Positions 2,749 through 47,302 of a stretch of DNA of 48,809 bases are shown in pieces. How positions within the stretch are numbered: the first letter of the stretch is position 1; the number at the start of each line of letters is the position of its first letter. Source of the DNA: a bacterium (GTDB lineage: Bacteria; Patescibacteriota; Minisyncoccia; Minisyncoccales; UBA10102). Below the pieces are notes generated by a model that saw only the letters and a list, made by a program, of their open reading frames with translations, searched no databases and had not been told where the DNA came from. The stretch covers positions 1 through 48,809 of the forward strand of contig JAQBTT010000002.1 in the NCBI GenBank assembly GCA_027624865.1, in the 5' to 3' direction. The position numbers and the translations under genes were made by a program.

Positions 2749-3810
2749 CTAGTGTGGCGGCTCTAGTTCATCGGTCTCAATTAACACCTCATGCAAGTCG
2801 TTTAGATTCTCAAGTACCATGCCAGCTCCACGAACCACAGCTGTTAGAGGATCCTCCACCATGGATGTAGGAATTTTCGTCTCCTTTGCAATGAGGATGT
2901 CTAGTCCACGAAGCAGTGCTCCCCCACCGGAAAGATAAATACCTTTTTCCATGATATCAGCAAGAAGCTCAGGAGGAGTTTGTTCTACTGCAGACTTAAT
3001 CTCATCCACAATTTGCTTAATGGAGCGCTCCATTGCTTTTCGAATAGCTGTATCTGAAACCATTATTTCTTCAGGAAGTCCTGATACTAAATTACGCCCA
3101 CGCAAAGACATTTCCTTTTTTTCTTTAAGAGGGAAAGCAGAGCCAATACCAATCTTTATATTCTCTGCAGTACGCTCTCCAATGAGCAATTTGTATTCAT
3201 TTTGTGCAAATTTAATAATGTCATCGTTTAATTTATCCCCTGCTACTCGCAAGGACCTTGCATTTATCACTCCCCCAAGAGAGATAACGGCAACTTCAGC
3301 AGTTCCTCCTCCAATATCTACGATAAAATTTCCACCAGCTTCTTGCACTAAAAGGCGAGCTCCAATGGCAGCTGCCATAGGTTCTTCAATAAGGTACACT
3401 TCTCGAGCTCCAGCTTGCAGTGTGGCGTCACGTACTGCCTTTTTTTCTACCTCAGTTACACCAAATGGAATTCCTACAATAACTCGAGGACCAGGAGAGA
3501 ATAGAAACCTTCTTTTTGCAACTTTGTTAATAAAATACTTGAGCATTTGTTCTGTTACCTCAAAGTCAGAGATAACTCCTTTTACGAGAGGCCTGGTTGC
3601 TACGATATGAGCTGGGGTTCTTCCTACCATTTGTTTTGCTTCAGCTCCAATAGCTAGCACCTGACCAGTCTTTTGGTTTACCGCAACGACTGAAGGCTCT
3701 TGAATAACAATTCCCCTTCCTTGGACATATACCAACGAGTTTGCAGTTCCAAGATCAATTGCGATATCTTGGCCTAAATAGGAGAGTAGTTTTTGCAGTA
3801 GTTTTTTCAT
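2749..3810 (-). CDS. mreB: Actin-like rod-shape protein MreB
   Basis: 353-aa ORF with the motifs IDLGTANSLVY, DIGGGTAEVAVISLGG and LSGGGALLRGLD. Confidence 0.92.
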   Translation of the reverse strand: MKKLLQKLLSYLGQDIAIDLGTANSLVYVQGRGIVIQEPSVVAVNQKTGQVLAIGAEAKQMVGRTPAHIVATRPLVKGVISDFEVTEQMLKYFINKVAKRRFLFSPGPRVIVGIPFGVTEVEKKAVRDATLQAGAREVYLIEEPMAAAIGARLLVQEAGGNFIVDIGGGTAEVAVISLGGVINARSLRVAGDKLNDDIIKFAQNEYKLLIGERTAENIKIGIGSAFPLKEKKEMSLRGRNLVSGLPEEIMVSDTAIRKAMERSIKQIVDEIKSAVEQTPPELLADIMEKGIYLSGGGALLRGLDILIAKETKIPTSMVEDPLTAVVRGAGMVLENLNDLHEVLIETDELEPPH

Positions 3811-5387: not shown

Positions 5388-6476
5388 CTAGAATATCCTA
5401 ATAACATCTTTTATGGTAACCCAGATCATCATTGATATTAACAGGACAAACACTATTGCAGAAAGTCTCTTTTCAAAAGTTTCTGAAATAGGCTTTTTGC
5501 GTATTGCTTCTATTGTTAAAAATAGCAATTTCCCGCCATCAACCACAGGGATAGGAAGAGCGTTGAAGATAGCAAGGTACACTGCAAGAACAGCAAGGAA
5601 AGAAAGGAAGTGAGGCACTCCAAGTGATAGAGAGTTTGTTAAAAGATGAACAATGCCAACTGGACCTGTAAATTCAACTCCTGCCGGCACGCCCCTACCA
5701 GATACAAGGTTTACAGCAAGGCCTCCAAGACCACCTATAATTTCTCCAGTAAGTTTTCCTGTTCTAATTACCCCTTGCACGGGAGCCTCAAGTAGTGTGT
5801 ATTTCACAAATGCAGTTCGCACAAGAGCAACTCCCATAGATCCTTCCCCGTCGGGTGGATCTATTCTTGGCATTAACGTAACCTCACTAATTTCATCCCC
5901 TCGCTTAAGAGTAATAATGATTTCTTCTCCTACTACCTTATCGGTGAAGGATTGCACCTCCCCAACTTTTGTTGGGAAAGCAAATGCTCCAGAGGTAGAG
6001 CTCACCATTTTTACAATGCTGTCTCCAAGCTCAATGCCAGCTATTTTCGCCGGAGAGTCCTTTGCTACACCAAGAATTTGTACTTGAGGATTTATTACTC
6101 CTGCAGTTTCTTCATCTCCAATTCCCGTTGGAATACCACTGGTAGCGCCAAGCCCAGTAAAGATAATGACGGCCACAAGCCAAAAGGCCACAACACCAGC
6201 TGCAACGATAACCATTCTTTGCCATATGGGTTTTGCAGAAAAGCTTCGGGGACCGGGGATAGCTTGTTCCTCTCCTTCAAGGCGTACAAAGGCACCTAGC
6301 GGAAGTAAGTTGATAGAATAAATAGTCTCCCCTATCTTTTTCCCAATCAGGCGAGGGGGAAGTCCAATACCAAACTCTTCAACTTTTACCCCATACTTTT
6401 TTGCAAAAAGATAGTGGCCCAGTTCATGCAGGATAACCAAAATAAGAAAGCTTGCGATAACGATAATAAGTGTCAT
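5388..6476 (-). CDS. rseP: RIP site-2 metalloprotease (M50) with PDZ domain
   Basis: 362-aa ORF with HELGHYLFAKKYG (HExxH), multiple TM segments and a central PDZ-like region. Confidence 0.88.
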   Translation of the reverse strand: MTLIIVIASFLILVILHELGHYLFAKKYGVKVEEFGIGLPPRLIGKKIGETIYSINLLPLGAFVRLEGEEQAIPGPRSFSAKPIWQRMVIVAAGVVAFWLVAVIIFTGLGATSGIPTGIGDEETAGVINPQVQILGVAKDSPAKIAGIELGDSIVKMVSSTSGAFAFPTKVGEVQSFTDKVVGEEIIITLKRGDEISEVTLMPRIDPPDGEGSMGVALVRTAFVKYTLLEAPVQGVIRTGKLTGEIIGGLGGLAVNLVSGRGVPAGVEFTGPVGIVHLLTNSLSLGVPHFLSFLAVLAVYLAIFNALPIPVVDGGKLLFLTIEAIRKKPISETFEKRLSAIVFVLLISMMIWVTIKDVIRIF

Positions 6477-8870: not shown

Positions 8871-8935
8871 ACCCCGCCCTCTATGCCATTTAAACTGTGA
8901 TTTTTCTCTTACTTAAACAGCTTAGAGGGCGGGGT
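8871..8935. repeat. GC-clamped hairpin repeat, family B (copy B1)
   Basis: accccgccctcta...tagagggcggggt inverted arms; its loop is similar to copy B3; lies between the murA stop and the mreB start. Confidence 0.85.
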
Positions 8936-13307: not shown

Positions 13308-13602
13308 TTACCGTTTCCTCCAATGCCGAGTCGCTTGGCTCCATTAAAATGTTCGCCTGCGCTCCTTAAAACCCCTCGGTTTTAATATTTCCGCCACGGG
13401 AAAGAATACTTCTCTCCCGACCCCTCTCTAGACAGTGTCGAAAGCTATCGCTTCCTCCACTGTCTAGTCGCTTGGCTCCATTAAAATGTTCGCCTGCGCT
13501 CCTTAAAACCCCTCGGTTTTAATATTTCCGCCACGGGGAGATACCCAATCTCCCCGACCCCCTCTGTGCAGACAGTGTCAGAAACTACCGTTTCCTCCAC
13601 TG
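13308..13602. repeat. Family G element: two tandem 137-bp units plus three copies of the rpsI 3' end
   Basis: Units 13329-13465 and 13466-13602 share 72 identical nt and then diverge in a hairpin. rpsI-end copies lie at 13308-13325, 13445-13465 and 13585-13602 (the real one). Confidence 0.85.
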
Positions 13603-14070
13603 TCTTGCTCTTCGAGCTCTTTTGAGTCCAAACTTCTTACGCTCGCGCATACGAGGATCTCTTGTGAGGAACTTTAGAGTTTTCATAGAGTCTCGCATCG
13701 CGGCGTCCCATTCTACGAGAACACGGGCCAACCCATGACGCACTGCCTCTGCTTGTGCTCTCATTCCACCACCGCGTACAACAATGCTTACATCAAATGT
13801 TTTTCCATCAGCCCCTCTTTCAAGGGCCTCCTTTGCGATAACCTGATACTCTTTGTCCTGAAAGTAGTCTTCAAAAGATTTTTGATTTACAACAAAACTA
13901 GTTTTCTTTGCATCCTTAATACGTATCCTGGCGACAGCAGTCTTTCTTCGCCCTGTTGCTTGCCAATATTTCCCCTCCACTTTTTTGGAAATTTCTTTTG
14001 CGCCAGCAAGAGCTTTAGCTTTTACTGCTTTTGGGGGATTTTTCTTTTTTACGATTTCTTTTTCTGCCAT
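13585..14070 (-). CDS. rpsI: Ribosomal protein uS9 (Lys-rich N-terminal extension)
   Basis: GRRKTAVARIRI...RKKFGLKRARRARQWRKR; the start at MAEKE (14070) is 4 nt after the rplM stop. Confidence 0.93.
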   Translation of the reverse strand: MAEKEIVKKKNPPKAVKAKALAGAKEISKKVEGKYWQATGRRKTAVARIRIKDAKKTSFVVNQKSFEDYFQDKEYQVIAKEALERGADGKTFDVSIVVRGGGMRAQAEAVRHGLARVLVEWDAAMRDSMKTLKFLTRDPRMRERKKFGLKRARRARQWRKR

Positions 14071-14074
14071 GGTA

Positions 14075-14428
14075 TTACAGCTCAATCTTCAGTCTCGTTA
14101 TTTGTCTTGCTCGTAATTTGTTTATAGGCATCATCCCATATACTGCTTTTCGCAATACCTCTTCGGGTTGCTCATCAAAAAACTTTTTCAGTGTGCGCTC
14201 TTTCAAACTTCCCAAGTATCCTGAATGCCGGAAATACTGCTTTTGATCAAGCTTTTTTCCAGTAAAATGAATTCTTTTGAAGTTTTGAACTGTCACAAAA
14301 TCCCCTACATCTTTGTGCGGAGCAAAATCCCCTTTCGTTCTTCCACGAAGAAGGTTTGCAACTTCCACTGCCAAGCGTCCCAATGGACGTCCCTGTGCAT
14401 TTATAATATGATTTTCACGTTGCTCCAT
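14075..14428 (-). CDS. rplM: Ribosomal protein uL13
   Basis: 117-aa ORF (GRLAVEVANLLRGR...), upstream of rpsI. Confidence 0.93.
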   Translation of the reverse strand: MEQRENHIINAQGRPLGRLAVEVANLLRGRTKGDFAPHKDVGDFVTVQNFKRIHFTGKKLDQKQYFRHSGYLGSLKERTLKKFFDEQPEEVLRKAVYGMMPINKLRARQITRLKIEL

Positions 14429-14782: not shown

Positions 14783-14916
14783 CCCAGTACTAGAAATTAG
14801 ACTTCTCCAGAAGTGCGATATATGCGACCATTGTTGATGTTTTGCTTGATGATTTCATAATAGATTAAATGTTATATTTTTGCGAGAGACAGCACTGTCT
14901 AATTTTCAGTACGGGG
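14782..14916. mobile_element. MITE-like element, family C (copy C1)
   Basis: Terminal inverted repeats ccccagtactagaaattagac / gtctaattttcagtacgggg. Flanked by TTCA on both sides, and the proximal copy forms part of the rplQ start codon. Confidence 0.7.
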
Positions 14917-15744: not shown

Positions 15745-15774
15745 GCGAAAATAAATTTATTTATTTATTTGAGC

Positions 15775-15876
15775 ACCCCGCCCTCTATGCAGTTGGACAG
15801 AATGCTTATTTTTTACTTTTCACTCTACACTAAAACATACTTCATGCCCTTTGTAAATATGCAGAGAGGGCGGGGT
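15775..15876. repeat. GC-clamped hairpin repeat, family B (copy B2)
   Basis: accccgccctctatgca...tgcagagagggcggggt; followed on the mRNA by the shared leader gctcaaataaataaataaatttattttcgc-ATG(rpoA). Confidence 0.85.
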
Positions 15877-16427: not shown

Positions 16428-16856
16428 TTACACTCTTCTTACTTTTTTCTTTCGTGGTCCATTATGTGGGATTGGTGTTAAATCTAAAATGGTCTGGATT
16501 TCAAAACCTCTTGCTCCCAATGAGCGCAATGCAGACTCTCTTCCTGGGCCAATGCCTCGCAAAGTAATAGTAACCTTCTCTACCCCTCGCGCCTTTGCAA
16601 CATCTGCCAAGGATTCTGCTACCTTGGAAGCTGCAAATGGTGTAGACTTTTTTGTTCCCTTAAATCCAACTGTGCCAGCTGATGTACTATACACAACATT
16701 CCCCTGTGTGTCGGCTAAAGCAATAATAGTGTTGTTGTATGAGGAGAAGATATTTATCCTACCCTCAAGAAACGTACGCCCCTTTGCTGGAATACGCACT
16801 GCTGTGGCATTTGAGCCAGAACTACCTCCTTTTTTAATAACTCGTTTCTTTCCCAT
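16428..16856 (-). CDS. rpsK: Ribosomal protein uS11
   Basis: 142-aa ORF (GFKGTKKSTPFAA...GPGRESALRSL). Confidence 0.94.
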   Translation of the reverse strand: MGKKRVIKKGGSSGSNATAVRIPAKGRTFLEGRINIFSSYNNTIIALADTQGNVVYSTSAGTVGFKGTKKSTPFAASKVAESLADVAKARGVEKVTITLRGIGPGRESALRSLGARGFEIQTILDLTPIPHNGPRKKKVRRV

Positions 16857-17015: not shown

Positions 17016-17405
17016 TTAGGTGGGGCTTGCTGCTGCTTTCTTTCCAGAACCAACTGTTTTTCGAACATTTCCACGAACGGTTCTTGTATTCGTACTGGTA
17101 CGTTGCCCTCTCACTGGAAGCCTCTTTTGATGGCGCATTCCACGCCATGAACCAATGTCTCGAAGACGCTTTACGTGCATCATTACCACTCGACGTAAGT
17201 CTCCTTCAATAACAAAGTCTTTTTCAAGGGCCGCGCGAAGCTTTGTGAGCTCTTCTGCAGTTAACTCCCCTGCTTTCTTTTCAGGACTAATCTTTGCCAA
17301 TTGTAAAATACGCTCACTACTTTTAATGCCAACACCGTATATATAGGTTAAGGCAAATTTAATTTGTTTTTTTTCTGGAATATTTATTCCTGCAACTCTT
17401 GGCAT
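17016..17405 (-). CDS. rpsM: Ribosomal protein uS13
   Basis: 129-aa ORF (MPRVAGINIPEKKQIKFALTYIYGVG). Confidence 0.94.
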   Translation of the reverse strand: MPRVAGINIPEKKQIKFALTYIYGVGIKSSERILQLAKISPEKKAGELTAEELTKLRAALEKDFVIEGDLRRVVMMHVKRLRDIGSWRGMRHQKRLPVRGQRTSTNTRTVRGNVRKTVGSGKKAAASPT

Positions 17406-17476: not shown

Positions 17477-17630
17477 TTTTCTGGAAGCTCTCGGAGGCAG
17501 TTTTGCCCGCCTGCAACGCTTGATGCGTAGCATCTGCGGGCAGGCATGGTCCGCCGATGAGGCGGAAAACTGCCGAGAGTGCAACTCCCAAAATCCAGCT
17601 GGGGATTTTGAGGGGCGGTTCCTAAGAAAA
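17477..17630. repeat. Structured GC-rich repeat, family A (copy A1, with an extra nested hairpin)
   Basis: Shares gcatggtc, ccgagagtgcaRctcccaa and gaggRgcggttc blocks with 33171-33289 and 46692-46809; its stems co-vary between copies. Confidence 0.8.
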
Positions 17631-25543: not shown

Positions 25544-26221
25544 TTAGTTAACTTCTTTAATAATATTTAAAAACTCTTTTGCGTCCAAAGAAGCAGCTCC
25601 TATCAATACTCCATGCACCTTTCCCACTTTCATAATCGAAGTAATGCTTTTTGCATCTACGCTCCCGCCATACAGTATTGGAACATTTTTTCCTACAACT
25701 TTCTTCATTGCTTGGGCCATCGTAGAAATATTCCCTGGAGTAATACGTTTTCCTCCTTGCGTACTAATTGCAGAAGATGGCTCAAACACCACAAGTATAT
25801 TCTTAAAGCTCTTCATGTTCTTTGCAATCATTTGAAGTTCTCGCACATTTTCAACACATAAGATAACTTTTAATCCAGCTTGCAAAGCAGCCTCAGCTTT
25901 TGCTTGCACCATTCCTAGGGTTTCGGCAAGATACTTCTTTCGTTCAGAATGCCCCAGGATAACAAAGGTACATCCCAAGCTCTTAAGCTGAAAAGGAGAA
26001 ACTTCCCCCGTAAGAGCGCCTTTTTGCTCCCAGGAACAGTTCTGCGCCCCAATTTGTACATTCTTTGATGCTGGCAACTGGGGAATAAAAACATAGGGAG
26101 GACAAAGCACCACTGTAGCGTTATATCCTTTAGCGCCCTTTGCCACCTTTTTTGCCAACACAAAAGCGCCCCTTGATGTTAATGGGTTCATCTTCCAGTT
26201 CGCAATAATAATAGGTTTCAT
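25544..26221 (-). CDS. tpiA: Triosephosphate isomerase
   Basis: The ORF was trimmed to MKPIIIANWKMNPL...ILGHSERK...YGGSV. Its ATG overlaps the TGA of a remnant ORF (ATATGA). Confidence 0.9.
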   Translation of the reverse strand: MKPIIIANWKMNPLTSRGAFVLAKKVAKGAKGYNATVVLCPPYVFIPQLPASKNVQIGAQNCSWEQKGALTGEVSPFQLKSLGCTFVILGHSERKKYLAETLGMVQAKAEAALQAGLKVILCVENVRELQMIAKNMKSFKNILVVFEPSSAISTQGGKRITPGNISTMAQAMKKVVGKNVPILYGGSVDAKSITSIMKVGKVHGVLIGAASLDAKEFLNIIKEVN

Positions 26222-26493
26222 ATGTTTAAGAGTCCAAGCGTGATCATACTTACAATGATCCCTGCTATTATGTGCCCCAATAGCATTATTGTTAAGGGGA
26301 AAATAGCTATTAACATATAGTAATGCCACATGTTAGTACGGACACAATGGCTGCAGCCATTATGTGCCCCAATAGCATTATTGTTAAGGGAAAAATAGCT
26401 ATTAACATATAGTAATGCCACATGTTAGTACGGACACAATGGCTGCAGCCATTATAACGCCAAAAAGGATAAGAGGAAATGCCTTGCGAAACG
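26218..26493. repeat. Three tandem 92-bp units, each encoding a variant of the C-terminal TM helix of the upstream membrane-protein gene
   Basis: 26267-26358 equals 26359-26450 apart from one base (26300 g vs 26392 a). The units read ...GVIMAAAIVSVLTCGITIC*, ...GHIMAAAIVSVLTCGITIC* and ...GHIIAGIIVSMITLGLLNI*. Confidence 0.85.
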
Positions 26494-26851
26494 GTATCCC
26501 AAAAACAAAGGCAACAAGAACAGCGGTCCACGCTCCGGTAAATGGTAGTGGAATTGCTACAAACAAAACAAGAGAAAGATCTTTTAGTAATGTAAACATT
26601 TTCTCATGTCTTTTCCTGGTTCGCAAAAAGAGCCAAGTAAAGATCTTTGCAAATATTGAAAAGCGCGAAGAAAGAGTTTCTGCGATAAAGCCGAGAGAAG
26701 GCAAAAAAAGCACAGGAATCATGTTTCCTGCAATTGCTAAGAAAAAGACCTGCCAGAAAGGCAACTTATACACCAATACACCCAAAGGAATTGCCCCTCG
26801 AAGCTCTGCAATTGGAGAGGCTGCAATAAGCGCAACAAAAAGTTGTTCCAT
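26402..26851 (-). CDS. Small multi-pass membrane protein (COG2426 / small multidrug export-like, tentative)
   Basis: 149-aa ORF (MEQLFVALIAASPIAELRGAIPLGV...) with 4 hydrophobic segments. Confidence 0.75.
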   Translation of the reverse strand: MEQLFVALIAASPIAELRGAIPLGVLVYKLPFWQVFFLAIAGNMIPVLFLPSLGFIAETLSSRFSIFAKIFTWLFLRTRKRHEKMFTLLKDLSLVLFVAIPLPFTGAWTAVLVAFVFGIPFRKAFPLILFGVIMAAAIVSVLTCGITIC

Positions 26852-31397: not shown

Positions 31398-31597
31398 CCA
31401 GGTACTAGAAATTAGACTTCTCTTGACTCTGTAGTGAATTTTGGACATGCTTTCGCAAACAAAGTTTGGTCCAAAATCTACTACGGGGTTGACTTGCGAT
31501 ATATGCGACCATTGTTGGTATTTTATTTAAAGATTTCATAATGAGTTGAATATTGTGTTTTGGCGAGAAATAGCAAGGTCTAATTTTCAGTACCTGG
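31398..31597. mobile_element. MITE-like element, family C (copy C2) with a nested family F element at 31428-31488
   Basis: 20-nt TIRs ccaggtactagaaattagac / gtctaattttcagtacctgg, flanked by CATA on both sides (the proximal copy is the rplO start codon). The nested 61-nt hairpin element is flanked by a TTGAC direct repeat that is absent from C1. Confidence 0.75.
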
Positions 31598-32513: not shown

Positions 32514-33080
32514 TTATGCACCTCCCGAGGCGCCTGCTGCTTTCTTACCTTCCTTTCTTCGCACTACTTCACCAACGTAGCGAACACCTTTTCCTTTATA
32601 AGGTTCCACTGGTCGATACCTTCTGATCTTTGCTGCAAATTCACCTACCTGTTGCTTGTTGATACCAGAGACAATAACGGTATTCTTTTCCACGACACAC
32701 GTAATGCCTTCTGGCATTTTTGCTTTTACGGGGTGGGAAAATCCAAGGGAAAGGTTAATCACGTCTCCTTCCACTGCAGCGCGATACCCTGTTCCTTCTA
32801 TCTCAAGTCTCTTTTCATACCCCTCAGTTACGCCCTGTATCATATTTGCCAGGAGCGTCCTGGTAAGTCCCCACAATCCTTTTGCAAGAAAAGCTCGTTT
32901 TTTTGAAAGGTCCTCACGCAAAGAAACCTGAATGACACTTTCCTCCTTTACTACGGATACATCAGGATGCATCTCATATACAAGTTCGCCTCGAGGTCCC
33001 TTCACCTTAGCTACGTGGTCTTCCAGACTCACATCCACATTAAGTGGTACTTCAATTGGTTGTTTTCCTATCCTTGACAT
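32514..33080 (-). CDS. rplF: Ribosomal protein uL6
   Basis: 188-aa ORF (MSRIGKQPIEVP...YKGKGVRY). Confidence 0.94.
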   Translation of the reverse strand: MSRIGKQPIEVPLNVDVSLEDHVAKVKGPRGELVYEMHPDVSVVKEESVIQVSLREDLSKKRAFLAKGLWGLTRTLLANMIQGVTEGYEKRLEIEGTGYRAAVEGDVINLSLGFSHPVKAKMPEGITCVVEKNTVIVSGINKQQVGEFAAKIRRYRPVEPYKGKGVRYVGEVVRRKEGKKAAGASGGA

Positions 33081-33170: not shown

Positions 33171-33289
33171 GAGAAATGTTGCTCTCCGGGAAGCTCTCGC
33201 AGGTGTTTTGGCATGGTCTTGAGCGAAGCGAAAGCAAAACACCGAGAGTGCAGCTCCCAAAATCCGGCTGGGGATTTTGAGGAGCGGTT
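33171..33289. repeat. Structured GC-rich repeat, family A (copy A2)
   Basis: gctctccgggaagctctcgcaggtgttttggcatggtc...caaaacaccgagagtgcagctcccaaaatccggctggggattttgaggagcggttctccgggagc; between rpsH and rplF. Confidence 0.8.
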
Positions 33290-36167: not shown

Positions 36168-36194
36168 ATGCGAAAATAAATTTATTTATTGAGC

Positions 36195-36281
36195 ACCCCG
36201 CCCTCTATGCCGTTCAAACTGTGTAATCTTTCATTGCTCAAACAGCTTAGAGGGCGGGGTTTCGTAGCGCTTCTGCGCTAC
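36195..36281. repeat. GC-clamped hairpin repeat, family B (copy B3), plus the accessory hairpin gtagcgc-ttct-gcgctac
   Basis: accccgccctcta...tagagggcggggt at 36195-36260. The small hairpin at 36264-36281 contains the rpsC TAG stop. Shared leader gctcaataaataaatttattttcgc before the rplP ATG. Confidence 0.85.
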
Positions 36282-36910
36282 TCAAATACTTCCCCTTTAT
36301 ACAACCACACCTTCACTCCAACAGCGCCATAGGTGGTTCTTGCCTCAACAAGAGCATAATCAATAATTGCGCGTTGTGTTTGCAATGGCAAACGTCCCTC
36401 TTTCAACACTTCTCTTCTGGCAATATCCGCTCCACCCAAACGTCCTGCAATCGCAAATTTCACTCCTTCAATGCCTTTGGTGGATGAAACTTTCTGCATC
36501 ATCTGCTTCATCACACGGCGATGTGGCATTCTCTTTTCCAACTGCTGGGCAATGTTTTGCGCCACTAATGTTGCTGACTCAAAAGGATTCTTGATCTCTC
36601 GAATCTCCAAACGAACATCTTTTGCCAAAACAAACTTTTGCAGTGCCTTCTTTACAATTTCAATTCCAGAACCCCCTCTTCCAATAATTAGTCCTGGTCT
36701 TCCAGAGCTTATGATAACGGTGAGGCGTCCAGCAAATCGTTCAATCTCAATGGCTTCCAGTGAAGCTTCCTTTAGTCTTGCTTCCAAAAATTCTCGGATA
36801 CGAAAATCCTCTTCCAAAGTCTTTGCGTATGCTTTCTTCTCAACCCAACGAGAAAGCCAATCTTTGGTTTCACGAATACGAAATATTTTTGGGTGTACTT
36901 TATGTGACAT
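36278..36910 (-). CDS. rpsC: Ribosomal protein uS3
   Basis: 210-aa ORF (MSHKVHPKIFRIRETKDW...). Confidence 0.94.
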   Translation of the reverse strand: MSHKVHPKIFRIRETKDWLSRWVEKKAYAKTLEEDFRIREFLEARLKEASLEAIEIERFAGRLTVIISSGRPGLIIGRGGSGIEIVKKALQKFVLAKDVRLEIREIKNPFESATLVAQNIAQQLEKRMPHRRVMKQMMQKVSSTKGIEGVKFAIAGRLGGADIARREVLKEGRLPLQTQRAIIDYALVEARTTYGAVGVKVWLYKGEVFE

Positions 36911-36935
36911 GCGAAAATAAATTTATTTATTGAGC

Positions 36936-37054
36936 ACCCCGCCCTCTAGGCTCTATGTACTGTTGTTGAAGACTCACAGGGCAAGATTTCTTTCAATATA
37001 GCGTCTTCAAACATACAGCATAGAGGGCGGGGTTTCGTAGCGCTTCTGCGCTAC
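36936..37054. repeat. GC-clamped hairpin repeat, family B (copy B4), plus the accessory hairpin
   Basis: The same arms and the same gtagcgcttctgcgctac hairpin as B3, but a different loop. Shared leader before the rpsC ATG. Confidence 0.85.
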
Positions 37055-44313: not shown

Positions 44314-46452
44314 TTATCTCCTCTTACCGTCTATTATCTCTTGCGCAATATTTACTGGTACCTCCTCGTAGGTATCGAACTCCATAGTAAAGGTTCCGCG
44401 CCCTTCAGTCAAGGACCTTAGGTTGGTCGCATACCCAAACATCTCAGCTAATGGAATCTTTACATTCACTACCTTCAAGTTTACCCTATCAAACGTTTCA
44501 TCAATCTTGCCTCTTCGCGATGATAAATCTCCAATAACATCTCCAAGAAAATCAGGAGGAATCACTACCTCAAGACTCATCACAGGTTCAAGGAGCATTG
44601 CTCCTGCTTTCTTTGCTGCTGATTGAAAGGCAATGGAGGCTGCAATCTTAAACGCAAATTCAGAGGAGTCTACTTCGTGAAAGGAACCATCATATAGCGT
44701 TGCCTTAATATCAATCATGGGGTACCCAGCTACCACTCCCTTATCCATTGCTTCCTTAATCCCCTTTTCTACAGCTGGAATATATTCGTGAGGAATTGAA
44801 CCACCTTTAATTTCATTTACATACTCAAATCCTTCCCCTCTCTCCTTTGGAGCAACGCGCAAGAGAACGTGTCCATACTGACCACGACCTCCTGACTGAC
44901 GTATGTACTTTTCCTCAGCTTGACCATCTGTCTTAATCGTCTCTTTGTATGCCACCTGAGGTCTCCCAACGTTTGCTGTAACATCAAACTCCCGCTTCAT
45001 TCTATCTACGATAATTTCCAAGTGCAGCTCCCCCATCCCAGAGATAATAGTATCTCCGGTTTCCTGGTCAGAGGAAACTCGCAATGTTGGATCCTCATCC
45101 GACAAACGTTTAAGCGCCATTCCCATCTTCTCTTGGTCAACTTTTGTTGCAGGTTCTATGCGAACTGAGATAACAGGCTCAGGGAAGCTAATTTGCTCAA
45201 GTAAAATGGGACTGCCCTCATCAGCCAACGTATGCCCTGTAGTGGTGTTTTTAAGGCCCACAGTGGCAGCAATATCTCCTGCAAAGAGTTCATCTACATC
45301 TTCTCTCTCGTTTGCATGCATTCTTAAGATTCGAGCAATTCTCTCTTTCTCTCCAGTGGTAACGTTTAGTACGTATGAACCCTTTTTTAACGTTCCAGAG
45401 TACACTCGAAAGTATGTTAAGGCACCTACAAAAGGATCAGTTGCAACCTTAAAAGCAAGAGAGGAAAAGGGTTCATCATCCGCAGCATGGCGCTCAATCT
45501 CCTCACCAGATTTTGGATTAATTCCCTTAATGGGTGGAACATCTACGGGAGAAGGAAGGTAATCTACTACTCCATCTAGCATAAGTTGGACTCCTTTGTT
45601 TTTTAAAGAAGAACCTACAAAGACAGGGACCAACTTGTTTGCCAGCGTTGCTTCTCGCAATACCTTTTTAATCTCGTCTGCTGGGATTTCCTCACCTGCA
45701 ATATATTTATTCATTAAGTTCTCATTTTCCCCAGCTACCTTCTCCATGAGCTTCTCTCGCCATTCCTTTGCTTTTTCTGTAAGGTCCGCTGGAATCTCTT
45801 CTTCTACAATTGTTTCTCCAAAGACTCCATCAAAAGAGTAAGCCTTCATTTTGATGAGATCTATGCACTTGGTGAACTTATCTTCCTCTCCATTGGGAAA
45901 TTGCACTGCAACAGCATTTTTGGTAAGTTTCTCTCCAATGGAAGCAAAGCTCTTTTCAAAGGAAGCTCCCATACGATCCAACTTGTTGATAAAGCAGATG
46001 CGGGGAACTTCAAACTTATCAGCCTGACGCCATACGGTTTCTGACTGGGGTTCCACTCCCGCTACCCCATCAAAAAGCACTACAGCTCCATCCAATACTC
46101 GAAGTGAGCGTTGTACCTCTACGGTAAAATCAATATGCCCTGGGGTATCAATAATATTAATACGATATTCGTGTTCTTTTCTGCGTTTTTCTGCGTCCTG
46201 GTCTGCGTTTTTCTGCGTGCCAACGTAAGTTGGCAACCAAAAGCATGTAGTAGCAGCTGAGGTAATGGTAATACCTCGCTCTCGTTCTTGAGCCATCCAG
46301 TCCATAACAGCGGCGCCTTCATGCACCTCCCCTATTTTGTGTGAAATACCTGTATAAAACAAAATACGCTCGGTAGTAGTCGTCTTACCAGCATCAATAT
46401 GAGCAATAATACCGATATCTCTTATTTTTTCAATTGGATATACGCGTGGCAT
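44314..46452 (-). CDS. fusA: Elongation factor G
   Basis: 712-aa ORF ([25 protein letters not shown]). Confidence 0.97.
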
Positions 46453-46492
46453 ATTAGTTATGAGTATTAAATACTTGCGAATGTTGATGTAA

Positions 46493-46561
46493 GAGAGGGG
46501 TCGGGAGAGAAGTATTCTCTCCCGTGGCGGAAATATTAAAACCGAGGGGTTTTAAGGAGCG
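46493..46561. repeat. Family G core (copy G3), inverted relative to the rpsI-locus copies
   Basis: The reverse complement matches cgctccttaaaacccctcggttttaatatttccgccacgggaRagaatacttctctcccgacccctctc of 13360-13430. Confidence 0.85.
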
Positions 46562-46573
46562 AGGGACGAGCGA

Positions 46574-46636
46574 CGCGTCGATATGGGCGATAATCCCAAT
46601 ATCACGGATTTGCTCTATAGGATATTGTCTTGGCAT
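46574..46636 (-). pseudogene. Orphan diverged copy of the first 21 codons of fusA
   Basis: [21 protein letters not shown] versus the real [21 protein letters not shown]. Many synonymous differences; it runs into the G3 element and a stop codon. Confidence 0.8.
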
Positions 46637-46638
46637 AT

Positions 46639-46680
46639 AGGAATTAGGAATTAGGTTGTAGGTTGTAGGTTGTAGGAGGC
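46639..46680. repeat. Six tandem heptamers (AGGAATT x2, AGGTTGT x3, AGGAGGC)
   Basis: Read directly from the sequence. The same AGGTTGT x3 tract occurs inside gatA at 1686-1720. Confidence 0.9.
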
Positions 46681-46691
46681 GAGGCAATGAA

Positions 46692-46809
46692 TTTTTAACA
46701 AGCTCGCGCAGGCGATTTGGCATGGTCTCCGAGCTTGCCGAGGAGAAAACTTCCGAGGGTGCAGCTCCCAATTTGCGCTGGCGAATTGAGGAGCGGTTCT
46801 CAAGAAAAC
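46692..46809. repeat. Structured GC-rich repeat, family A (copy A3)
   Basis: gcatggtc, ccgagggtgcagctcccaa and gaggagcggttc blocks are conserved. The distal hairpin is rewritten as caatttgc-gctg-gcgaattg. Confidence 0.75.
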
Positions 46810-46834
46810 AGCATCCAAGCATCATCTCCATCCC

Positions 46835-47302
46835 TCACCATGCGAAATGCGCGAATGCTCGGTTCGCCTCTGCCATGCGATGAGTATCTTCTTTTTTCTT
46901 AAAGGCAGTTCCTTCACTCTTATATGCTGCCATAAGTTCCTCGGCAAGTTTTTCACGCATTGGCTTTCCTTTCTTTCCTCGTGCTGCATTAATAATCCAA
47001 CGAGTAGCCAAAGACTCTTTGCGGTGGTCCTTTACCTGTACAGGAACCTGATAGGTAGCGCCTCCAACTCTTTTGGAGCGCACCTCAAGCAATGGAGCAA
47101 CATTTTCTAAAGCCTTCTGGAATACCTCGATAGGATCTTTCTTGGTTTTGTCTTTAATAATTTCCAAAGCACCATACACAATCTTTCGTGCGGCAGACTT
47201 TTTCCCCTCAGTCATAATATGATTGATAAACTTAGCAATCTGCACATTATTGTGAACCAAGTCAGGATGAGGAATTCTTTTTTGTATTTTGTATCGAGGC
47301 AT
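46835..47302 (-). CDS. rpsG: Ribosomal protein uS7
   Basis: 155-aa ORF ([16 protein letters not shown]...). Confidence 0.95.

Follow-up and report, generated by a model that had tools for sequence, protein, structure and literature searches.

On the minus strand of the window, by which we mean the whole 48,809-nt stretch of DNA analysed here, rpsL (47848-47435) is followed by rpsG (47302-46835), which encodes ribosomal protein S7 in a reading frame of 155 aa and whose homologue in relatives carries PF00177, and by fusA (46452-44314), which encodes the 712-aa elongation factor EF-G. The assembled path has the conserved order rpsL-rpsG-fusA-tuf. Downstream of rpsG, the spacer at 46637-46834 is occupied by another repeat family (approximately 46690-46830; families D15 and D18) and by heptamer tandem repeats (CAACCTA three times and ATTCCTA twice, 46637-46680), the latter forming the leader of a second, orphan fusA start. 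This orphan 5′ fragment corresponds to nt 1-62 of fusA (46575-46636) and is followed without interruption by a structured sequence, the G element (46491-46574), base 46574 being common to the fragment and to the GTCG with which the element begins. The intact fusA lies beyond the element, its first 21 codons representing the regenerated terminus.

The first-pass annotation of this DNA had proposed that a diverged orphan of the fusA 5′ end precedes the real gene and runs directly into a G element, and both statements agree with our comparison. With the shared base included, the copy spans 63 nt (46636-46574, with its ATG at 46636-46634) and encodes 19 of the 21 residues found at the start of the working gene. 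Eighteen of the 63 nt differ (29%), distributed as 4, 1 and 13 over codon positions 1, 2 and 3, and the differing codons comprise 12 synonymous and two non-synonymous ones (Q4V and Q9K). Homology between the orphan and fusA stops at codon 21, where the fragment abuts the element; over the next 11 codons 27 of 33 nt differ. The two ATG codons are 184 nt apart and hence in different frames.

At fusA, the element runs on the minus strand from its GTCG start (46574-46571) through a short variable arm and the pyrimidine run CTCCTT to hairpin P3 (46555-46536), the joiner TATTTCCGCCA, hairpin P4 (46524-46502), a single A and a pyrimidine tail, CCCCTCTCTT (46500-46491). This order is found throughout the family, whose members start with GTCG(C), or with TCAC in one subgroup. 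P3 is invariant across copies (TTAAAACC-CCTC-GGTTTTAA). P4, which has a purine-rich 5′ strand, covaries: seven of its ten pairs are changed on both sides, and the observed covariation score was reached by none of 500 shuffles. The tail is a parallel complement of the P4 purine strand and tracks it in at least eight stem variants (for example GGGAGAGAA with CCCTCTCTT, and GGGAGGGAA with CCCTCCCTT), with 84% parallel-complement matches over 31 variants vs. 62% in the antiparallel sense, and none of 2000 permutations reached the observed match. To judge from the letters, such a pattern would be the signature of an intramolecular pyrimidine-motif triple helix (H-type), or mirror repeat. Both P3 and P4 are present in the minimum-energy folds of the fusA copy, whether it is folded as RNA or as DNA.

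Two further copies of the element reside in the window, arranged as tandem units downstream of rpsI on the plus strand (13308-13584). The core of the fusA copy is 99% identical over 70 nt to the rpsI-side copy at 13360-13429, and a 41-nt part of it occurs again at 13497-13537; 100 shuffles gave no match by chance. With a covariance model the three copies score 84-94 bits, and no others are detected in the window. Each rpsI unit consists of a gene-end fragment, an element, an inverted site copy and a short spacer, in conformity with the family layout described below. In unit 1 the fragment of the rpsI 3′ end (13308-13329) precedes an element at 13330-13429 and the inverted site copy AGACAGTG at 13430-13437, and in unit 2 the corresponding features are found at 13445-13465, 13466-13566 and 13570-13577, with the same inverted site copy. 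The intact rpsI gene, encoding S9, occupies 13585-14085 on the minus strand, and its last 21 nt are the repeated terminus. Searched with Rfam 15 at gathering score, the window yields two tRNAs only and no family for the element, and at a permissive threshold the best E-value matches at the locus reach 15-20 bits, compared with gathering thresholds of 37-80. Scanning the locus for sigma-70 promoters and intrinsic terminators gave nothing useful.

As three copies of the 70-nt core are present and the de Bruijn graph branches at the core, an assembly chimera across this repeat might be thought to have created the locus. Its support was examined at contig level using Logan unitigs from the single public run holding the sequence, and two independent unitigs of equal depth were found to reproduce both junctions without a single difference from the contig: the first, of 1180 nt and depth 6.9, takes in fusA as far as 46549, and the second, of 886 nt and depth 6.2, spans 46532-46900 and continues past it. 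The graph branches nowhere else than in the repeated core, from which the remaining edges run to the rpsI copies; the rpsG-fusA order is kept along the assembled path, and equivalent structures are found in more than 50 independent assemblies. We consequently give a chimera next to no credence: as far as contig-level data show, the orphan and the element form a real locus and are no assembly artefact.

The segment that separates the element from the fusA start was described in the first-pass annotation as a new leader lacking a Shine-Dalgarno motif. The motif is indeed absent, but this is unremarkable, because most genes of the window lack one. As for its novelty, the leader largely consists of a decayed inverted copy of fusA nt ~33-70 that spans the insertion point (46456-46494, minus strand). 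Its alignment to the reverse complement of that part of fusA requires two gaps. The score of 29 compares with 14.2 on average, and 26 at most, among 444 genomic 45-mers, and is reached by 18 of 2000 shuffles. The inverted copy matches the current fusA and not the orphan. Similar segments are found throughout the family, the one at fusA being longer but decayed: the 10-22 nt immediately following the tail are the reverse complement of the intact target at the insertion point and for 0-8 nt beyond it, and the match exceeds the 95th percentile of cross-locus controls in 61% of loci. When compared with both the intact gene and the fragment, the inverted copy agrees better with the intact gene in 13 cases, worse in one, and equally in eight. 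Together with the inner end of the fragment, the inverted copy forms an outer stem that closes the element. No conserved TAM- or PAM-like motif was found beside the target match, and some junctions show microhomology of 0-3 nt of GTC.

A reading frame of 60 codons starts at the orphan ATG, crosses the element and ends at a TAA (46456-46454), thus covering 46454-46636 on the minus strand. Of the three frames through the element only the one it uses is open, and its stop is separated from the fusA ATG by 1 nt; the first-pass annotation had overlooked this. The same frame arrangement is seen in five of six independent genes targeted at their 5′ ends (p ~0.02 for the frame alone), and at the other 5′-end insertions the orphan frame stops at positions ranging from a 4-nt overlap with the functional start to 14 nt before it. 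Termination this close to the real ATG suggests translational coupling, so that fusA may be expressed by termination-reinitiation from the orphan frame, and coupling of this kind would let fusA keep its old initiation region.

To survey the family, a 25-nt piece of the core, AAAACCCCTCGGTTTTAATATTTCC, was used as a probe against one-genome-per-species assemblies, metagenome contigs and viral contigs. It was detected in 39 genome contigs and 77 metagenome contigs, corresponding to 100 distinct copies, and in none of the viral contigs scanned. All named assemblies bearing the core belong to Patescibacteria (Paceibacteria and bins labelled Uhr-, Falkow-, Yanofsky- and Saccharibacteria). The elements, approximately 85-130 nt long, are non-coding and defined by their structure, and they share a fixed layout in which a gene-end fragment is followed by the element, the inverted site copy, an optional spacer and an intact terminus continuing into the gene. 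The left-hand copy of the terminus is the fragment, which ends at the GTCG of the element, and the right-hand copy runs into the intact gene. Flanking direct repeats (score at least 28) were found in approximately 70% of some 90 evaluable copies in other genomes, vs. 1.5% of mismatched-locus controls; they are 14-105 nt long (median 36) and 73-100% identical. The earlier proposal that a G element is associated with replacement of a gene terminus and retention of the other one therefore holds family-wide, most copies having a gene-end fragment on one side and a regenerated end on the other.

A gene terminus could be named as the target of 51 copies, namely 25 tRNA 3′ ends, 17 protein-gene 3′ ends and nine protein-gene 5′ ends. 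Eleven kinds of tRNA are targeted, with the break within or beside the T-arm. The protein-gene 3′ ends include those of gyrB, rpsJ, fusA, a membrane protein and rpsI, the last in at least five assemblies including the present one (the others being L001, L011/L035, L051 and L063), and the 5′-end targets are fusA (here), rnhA (on four different contigs), dinB, hpf, a glycosyltransferase gene and a trxB-like gene. A metagenome scan for AHIDA-coding sequence adjoining the core revealed no second insertion at the fusA 5′ end; in relatives, the same element subfamily is found at the 3′ end of fusA (L045, with a repeat of ~100 nt) and after rpsJ (L042), where five of 28 nt distinguish the two copies, each of which encodes GVDIEIKM*. 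All 51 assigned copies have their tail towards the gene body, the gene being antisense to the element at 3′-end targets and sense at 5′-end targets. The geometry is thus fixed with respect to the gene end and not to the orientation of transcription, which argues for a rule acting at the DNA level.

Additional observations bear on how the elements travel. The rnhA-targeted copies on the four contigs share a conserved leader between the element and the ATG, so this leader travels with the element. Identical elements occur at different targets within one genome (L010 and L011), indicating either that the element proper can change target or that copies are homogenised by gene conversion. In four of the 100 copies the same helices follow one another in circularly permuted order; this is compatible with a circular intermediate and is no proof of one. 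All-against-all clustering of the open reading frames neighbouring 39 loci (up to 8 kb) recovered only the target genes as recurrent, and no integrase, transposase, recombinase, reverse transcriptase or nuclease recurs beside the element at ~40 loci (~4 kb). A single HNH-like reading frame was seen between two copies in L038.

Where the two fusA starts come from can be approached through the type of differences that separate them. Over all protein-gene cases, fragment and working terminus differ at 25, 11 and 72 sites in codon positions 1, 2 and 3, and the differing codons comprise 64 synonymous and 29 non-synonymous ones. The synonymous share of 69% fits two sequences that diverged mostly as working gene ends; free decay of one copy in place would give approximately 37-40% by our own estimate. 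The synonymous excess at fusA and its family-wide counterpart thus bear out the earlier suggestion that both copies had evolved as EF-G coding sequence before they met. In many family members the repeats are 100% identical (27-105 nt) and extend past the gene end into the non-coding flank, so that duplication at insertion also seems to happen, or else homogenisation by gene conversion.

Comparison with relatives indicates that the orphan is probably the displaced resident start, as it is closer than the current start to the fusA start of the closest relatives. In the 17 closest EF-G relatives (82-91% identical) the protein always begins MPRQ/K...E(Q/R), which is the pattern of the orphan; V4 and K9 of the current start are found in none of them, and Q4 and Q9 of the orphan are the relatives' states. 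At the nucleotide level, the closest relative matches the orphan at 56 and the current start at 46 of the 63 nt (the gene-wide mean for 21-codon windows being 52.9, sd 3.7). In this alignment of both 63-mers to relatives, which the first-pass annotation had suggested, the next two relatives do not discriminate (51 vs. 48 and 50 vs. 53 matches, orphan vs. current start). Taken site by site, the three closest relatives support the orphan at 10 of the 18 differences and the current start at seven. Within the last 15 nt it is the current start that is favoured, which hints at a reciprocal mosaic (Fisher p = 0.10), and reconstructing both 63-mers as such a mosaic produced by a single crossover gave a slight, non-significant gain. 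The GC content at third positions (GC3) is 0.14 for the current codons 1-21, within the lowest 1.8% of windows, compared with 0.37 gene-wide and a typical 0.43 for the orphan. In the two closest relatives in which fusA is linked to rpsG (L040 and L041), fusA follows 5-6 nt after rpsG and no element is present; L042 has homologous filler in the rpsG-fusA spacer. No residues foreign to the clade occur at fusA positions 10-72, and there is no sign of a foreign tract past codon 21. A 10-residue insert (residues 78-88) that resembles inserts of distant EF-Gs was considered as a trace of a longer foreign tract and dropped as evidence, because it lies in a hypervariable loop, is built on a local tandem repeat and is preceded by residues 10-72 without foreign states.

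Taken together, our preferred explanation, to which we assign a probability of approximately 0.65, is that fusA holds, after nt 62, a member of a Patescibacteria-wide family of small non-coding insertions that restore the gene ends they interrupt, with the orphan as the resident start and with expression of the gene coupled through the reading frame. The comparisons above show the fixed layout, the conserved fold, the range of targets and the synonymous-type divergence of the family. The family is presumably mobile, and it is taken to be non-autonomous because no protein recurs beside its copies. Of the two interpretations offered by the first-pass annotation, restoration of the target gene by the inserting element is the better fit; the other, recombination with DNA from a related lineage, may describe how the diverged terminus arrived. 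The first 21 codons of the current fusA and the leader would have arrived with the insertion or been made by it. The diverged terminus would derive from a fusA allele itself subject to selection; the simplest course would be that a filled allele or unit spread among related lineages.

The mechanism of insertion is the least certain part of this explanation, and two routes may be envisaged. Along one of them, a unit consisting of the element, the inverted site copy, a spacer and a terminus copy would recombine with the homologous end of its counterpart gene in a different genome, regenerating the gene and displacing the resident end; this could account for the diverged pairs, the co-travelling leader and the agreement of the inverted copy with the intact gene. 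Alternatively, a replicative template switch might copy the element, move for a short stretch to the wrong target strand and afterwards copy the terminus a second time; such a switch could explain why some repeats are identical and why units occur in tandem, as well as the inverted copy and the microhomology of 0-3 nt at the junctions. The two routes may both be at work, the template switch creating new units and recombination spreading them. By analogy, an inverted site copy placed after a folded scaffold resembles a scaffold-plus-guide arrangement and may serve as a guide or as a primer-landing site. A bolder version of the idea, which we hold only tentatively and consider somewhat less probable than its negation, is that the elements form an undescribed non-autonomous class in which a triplex scaffold and a target-complementary segment direct insertion just inside gene termini, either by guidance (RNA or single-stranded DNA) or by self-priming template switch, the terminus being rebuilt in the same event, so that essential genes such as fusA, rpsI and gyrB, and tRNA genes, could be colonised and remain functional; the circularly permuted copies would then reflect a circular intermediate.

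Several rival explanations were considered. The insertion may have duplicated the fusA start in place, as in a long target-site duplication, yielding two copies that were identical at first, after which the working copy changed rapidly by synonymous, AT-enriching substitutions suited to its new upstream context and the orphan stayed near the ancestral state. The family members with identical repeats of 27-105 nt that include non-coding flank are in line with such a history, as are the direction of the changes from orphan to current start (nine GC to AT and three AT to GC by our own count, with GC3 down to 0.14), their concentration in nt 1-42, and the closeness of the orphan to the nearest relative. 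We nevertheless consider it unlikely: the family-wide 64:29 excess of synonymous changes is unexpected under free decay of one copy, four changes on the orphan's side close to the junction all fall in third positions, and the two copies differ more in third positions (62%) than fusA does from its closest relative (37.5%), although that relative lacks the insertion. Another supposition is that ordinary allele replacement introduced foreign fusA DNA, joined by homologous exchange at one end and illegitimately at the other, and that the element was a bystander carried in or trapped by chance. This would explain the synonymous-type divergence of the two 63-mers, recombination being common in bacteria. 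It would leave to coincidence that ~50 gene termini in many genomes show one and the same layout, always with the GTCG end joined to the fragment and the inverted copy after the tail, and no foreign tract is found downstream of fusA codon 21; we regard it as very improbable.

Somewhat less likely than duplication in place, but likelier than a bystander role, is descent from an integrase-driven element, of which the G element would be a remnant or miniature comparable to a CIME (attL-attR with nothing between) and mobilised in trans by a tyrosine or serine recombinase; the repeats would then be att sites and the regenerated terminus an attP-borne gene end. Targeting of the tRNA T-arm region and of conserved protein-gene ends, with one terminus displaced and the other restored, follows classic integrase logic, and integrase target sites were reportedly sorted into sublocation classes by Williams in 2002; the orientation rule obeyed by 51 of 51 copies and the GTC microhomology at some junctions point the same way. 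Against this origin, however, no integrase gene recurs within ~4 kb of ~40 loci, the repeats of 14-105 nt have neither a common crossover core nor a conserved flanking motif, the interior is a uniform, covarying fold of 85-130 nt and not the random remnant of a deletion, and att sites contain nothing equivalent to the inverted site copy.

If our preferred explanation, a family of small insertions that restore gene ends, is correct, the streamlined genomes of CPR bacteria carry a widespread parasite-like element, which can live inside essential conserved genes because the interrupted gene end is rebuilt. It would also explain orphan fragments of gene ends and tRNA ends in CPR genomes, which can be misleading for gene callers and tRNA finders, and would provide a marker for recombination between lineages. 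An interrupted operon gene would be kept expressed via a read-through frame ending at the real start. The 25-nt core is unchanged across assemblies labelled as several Patescibacteria groups, and the compact fold of two hairpins and a mirror-repeat third strand would point to a partner enzyme and a chemistry that could be worth finding.

Various known systems share individual features with the G element, and a full-text literature search returned no description of such an element within the collection searched. Small, non-coding, hairpin-forming repeats that are present in multiple copies and presumably moved in trans, such as the MITE-like Correia, RPE, REP/REPIN and PATE repeats, are similar in general appearance, and RPEs can lie within genes. 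MITE-like repeats, however, carry their own terminal inverted repeats and generate short fixed target duplications or none, whereas the outer stem of the G element is made of target sequence and differs at each site, and its long duplication (14-105 nt) regenerates the gene end. Homing introns and inteins also occupy conserved sites in essential genes and can import donor flank by co-conversion, and guide-bearing elements (group II introns with EBS-IBS pairing, IS110 with its bridge RNA, TnpB with its omega-RNA) likewise place a target-complementary segment beside a folded scaffold; differently from both, the G element does not rely on splicing, the gene being rebuilt by duplication, and has no Rfam match, associated protein or target-adjacent motif that we could find. 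In polymorphic toxin loci (the orphan modules of rhs and cdiA), too, the incoming segment becomes the new gene end and the old end, with which it has a block of homology in common, is left as an orphan, but these loci swap functionally different tips together with immunity genes by homologous recombination, whereas the ends exchanged here are equivalent and the agent is tiny and structured. A diversity-generating retroelement was rejected on the grounds that the differences are of all types, fall mostly in third positions and are not confined to adenines, and that no neighbouring protein (reverse transcriptase) recurs. This analogy and those with retrons, integron attC sites, IS200/IS605 and Helitrons were set aside, since the hallmarks of these systems are missing: changes specific to adenine, an adjoining reverse transcriptase, R-box cores, or a tetranucleotide target that is not duplicated.

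Parallels also exist with systems that insert at the ends of conserved genes. Casposons and CRISPR spacer integration, both of which depend on Cas1, target the 3′ end of tRNA-Pro or archaeal EF-2 genes and duplicate the target segment, and the G element similarly duplicates target segments at the ends of tRNA and elongation factor genes. Cas1 duplications, though, have a length fixed by a ruler mechanism, and casposons extend over kilobases and encode Cas1 and a polymerase, which the G element lacks. In its logic the G element resembles integrative elements and CIMEs (islands mobilised by tyrosine recombinases, and prophages), which insert inside the ends of tRNA or protein genes, restore the gene and leave the displaced end as a direct repeat. 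The G family shares with them the attL/attR-type flanking repeats that include the end of the target gene, together with the restored gene; no integrase recurs in or near the element at 39 loci (up to 8 kb), and no common crossover core was found, the junctions sharing only 0-3 nt of GTC. Unlike these islands, the G element measures ~100 nt, uses many targets, each with its own copy of the terminus, and has no recombinase in it or nearby; it combines repeats of 14-105 nt that lack a common core with a covarying fold and an inverted site copy. The G element would thus be a gene-end-restoring insertion that differs from integrase islands in size, in targets, in its fold and in its inverted copy.

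The EF-G protein encoded by fusA carries a 10-residue insert in a loop of its G domain (residues 78-88; 46178-46215, forward strand), which is founded on three tandem repeats of TTTTCTGCGT. This insert is absent from the 17 closest relatives, with the exception of the EF-G P0012, where a different insert is found; the distant EF-Gs P0041 and P0042 have an insert resembling that at residues 78-88. The loop around these residues looks hypervariable.

The spacer between rpsG and fusA is filled by a second repeat family with the seed AGAAAACTTCCGAGGGTGCAGCTCCCAA (approximately 46690-46830), also found at 17564-17591 and 33233-33260 and, in the further relative L042, at approximately 3010-3170 of that contig, where homologous filler occupies the equivalent rpsG-fusA position. 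As the two genes are separated by only 5-6 nt in the closer relatives L040 and L041, it appears that this repeat family, too, has been gained or lost. The orphan fusA start is itself preceded by a heptamer array of three CAACCTA and two ATTCCTA units (46637-46680, reverse strand). AT-rich tandem repeats with units of 7-8 nt lie upstream of many genes in the window, including the ORFs at 5388-6476, 16428-16856, 17016-17405, 32514-33080 and 46835-47302, and such repeats also occur at 1685-1716; comparable arrays precede fusA in the relatives L042 and L043. These arrays might constitute a leader or initiation signal in this SD-poor genome.

A GC-rich motif, (C)ATAGAGGGCGGGGTGCTCAATAAATAAATTTATTTTCGC, is repeated directly upstream of several ribosomal-protein genes, frequently in inverted pairs: the copies at 8871-8899, 15748-15790, 36168-36223 and 36909-36964 have counterparts in inverted orientation at 8920, 15861, 36245 and 37018. 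The motif could be a site of regulation or one more element. Within the ribosomal-protein cluster, a 99-nt repeat of 82% identity is present in two intergenic regions (14814-14912 and 31495-31593). In addition, a 92-nt tandem duplication of 92% identity (26252-26343 and 26344-26435) spans the start of the ORF at 25544-26329 and the end of that at 26402-26851. It is a gene boundary that is duplicated here; no G element is present within it (26252-26435).

On contigs outside the window, circularly permuted versions of the element, in the order P4 3′ strand, tail, TTT, P3, joiner and P4 5′ strand, are found in L006, L007, L017, L024 and L042 (957-1029). The copies of L007, L017 and L042 are nearly identical and all three are without a flanking repeat; those in L007 and L017 are located directly upstream of genes, one of which appears to be infC. 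The permuted version might represent the element fold in stand-alone form. In a single case, L038, two copies of the element with a common tRNA-end repeat flank an ORF that resembles an HNH endonuclease (+372 to +1079 from the conserved core, in element orientation). Some of the tRNA-end fragments adjoining elements in the left flanks of L009, L016, L020, L025 and L038 contain an additional CGCTTCGCTA-like insert in their T-loop sequence, which suggests nested or repeated insertion events.
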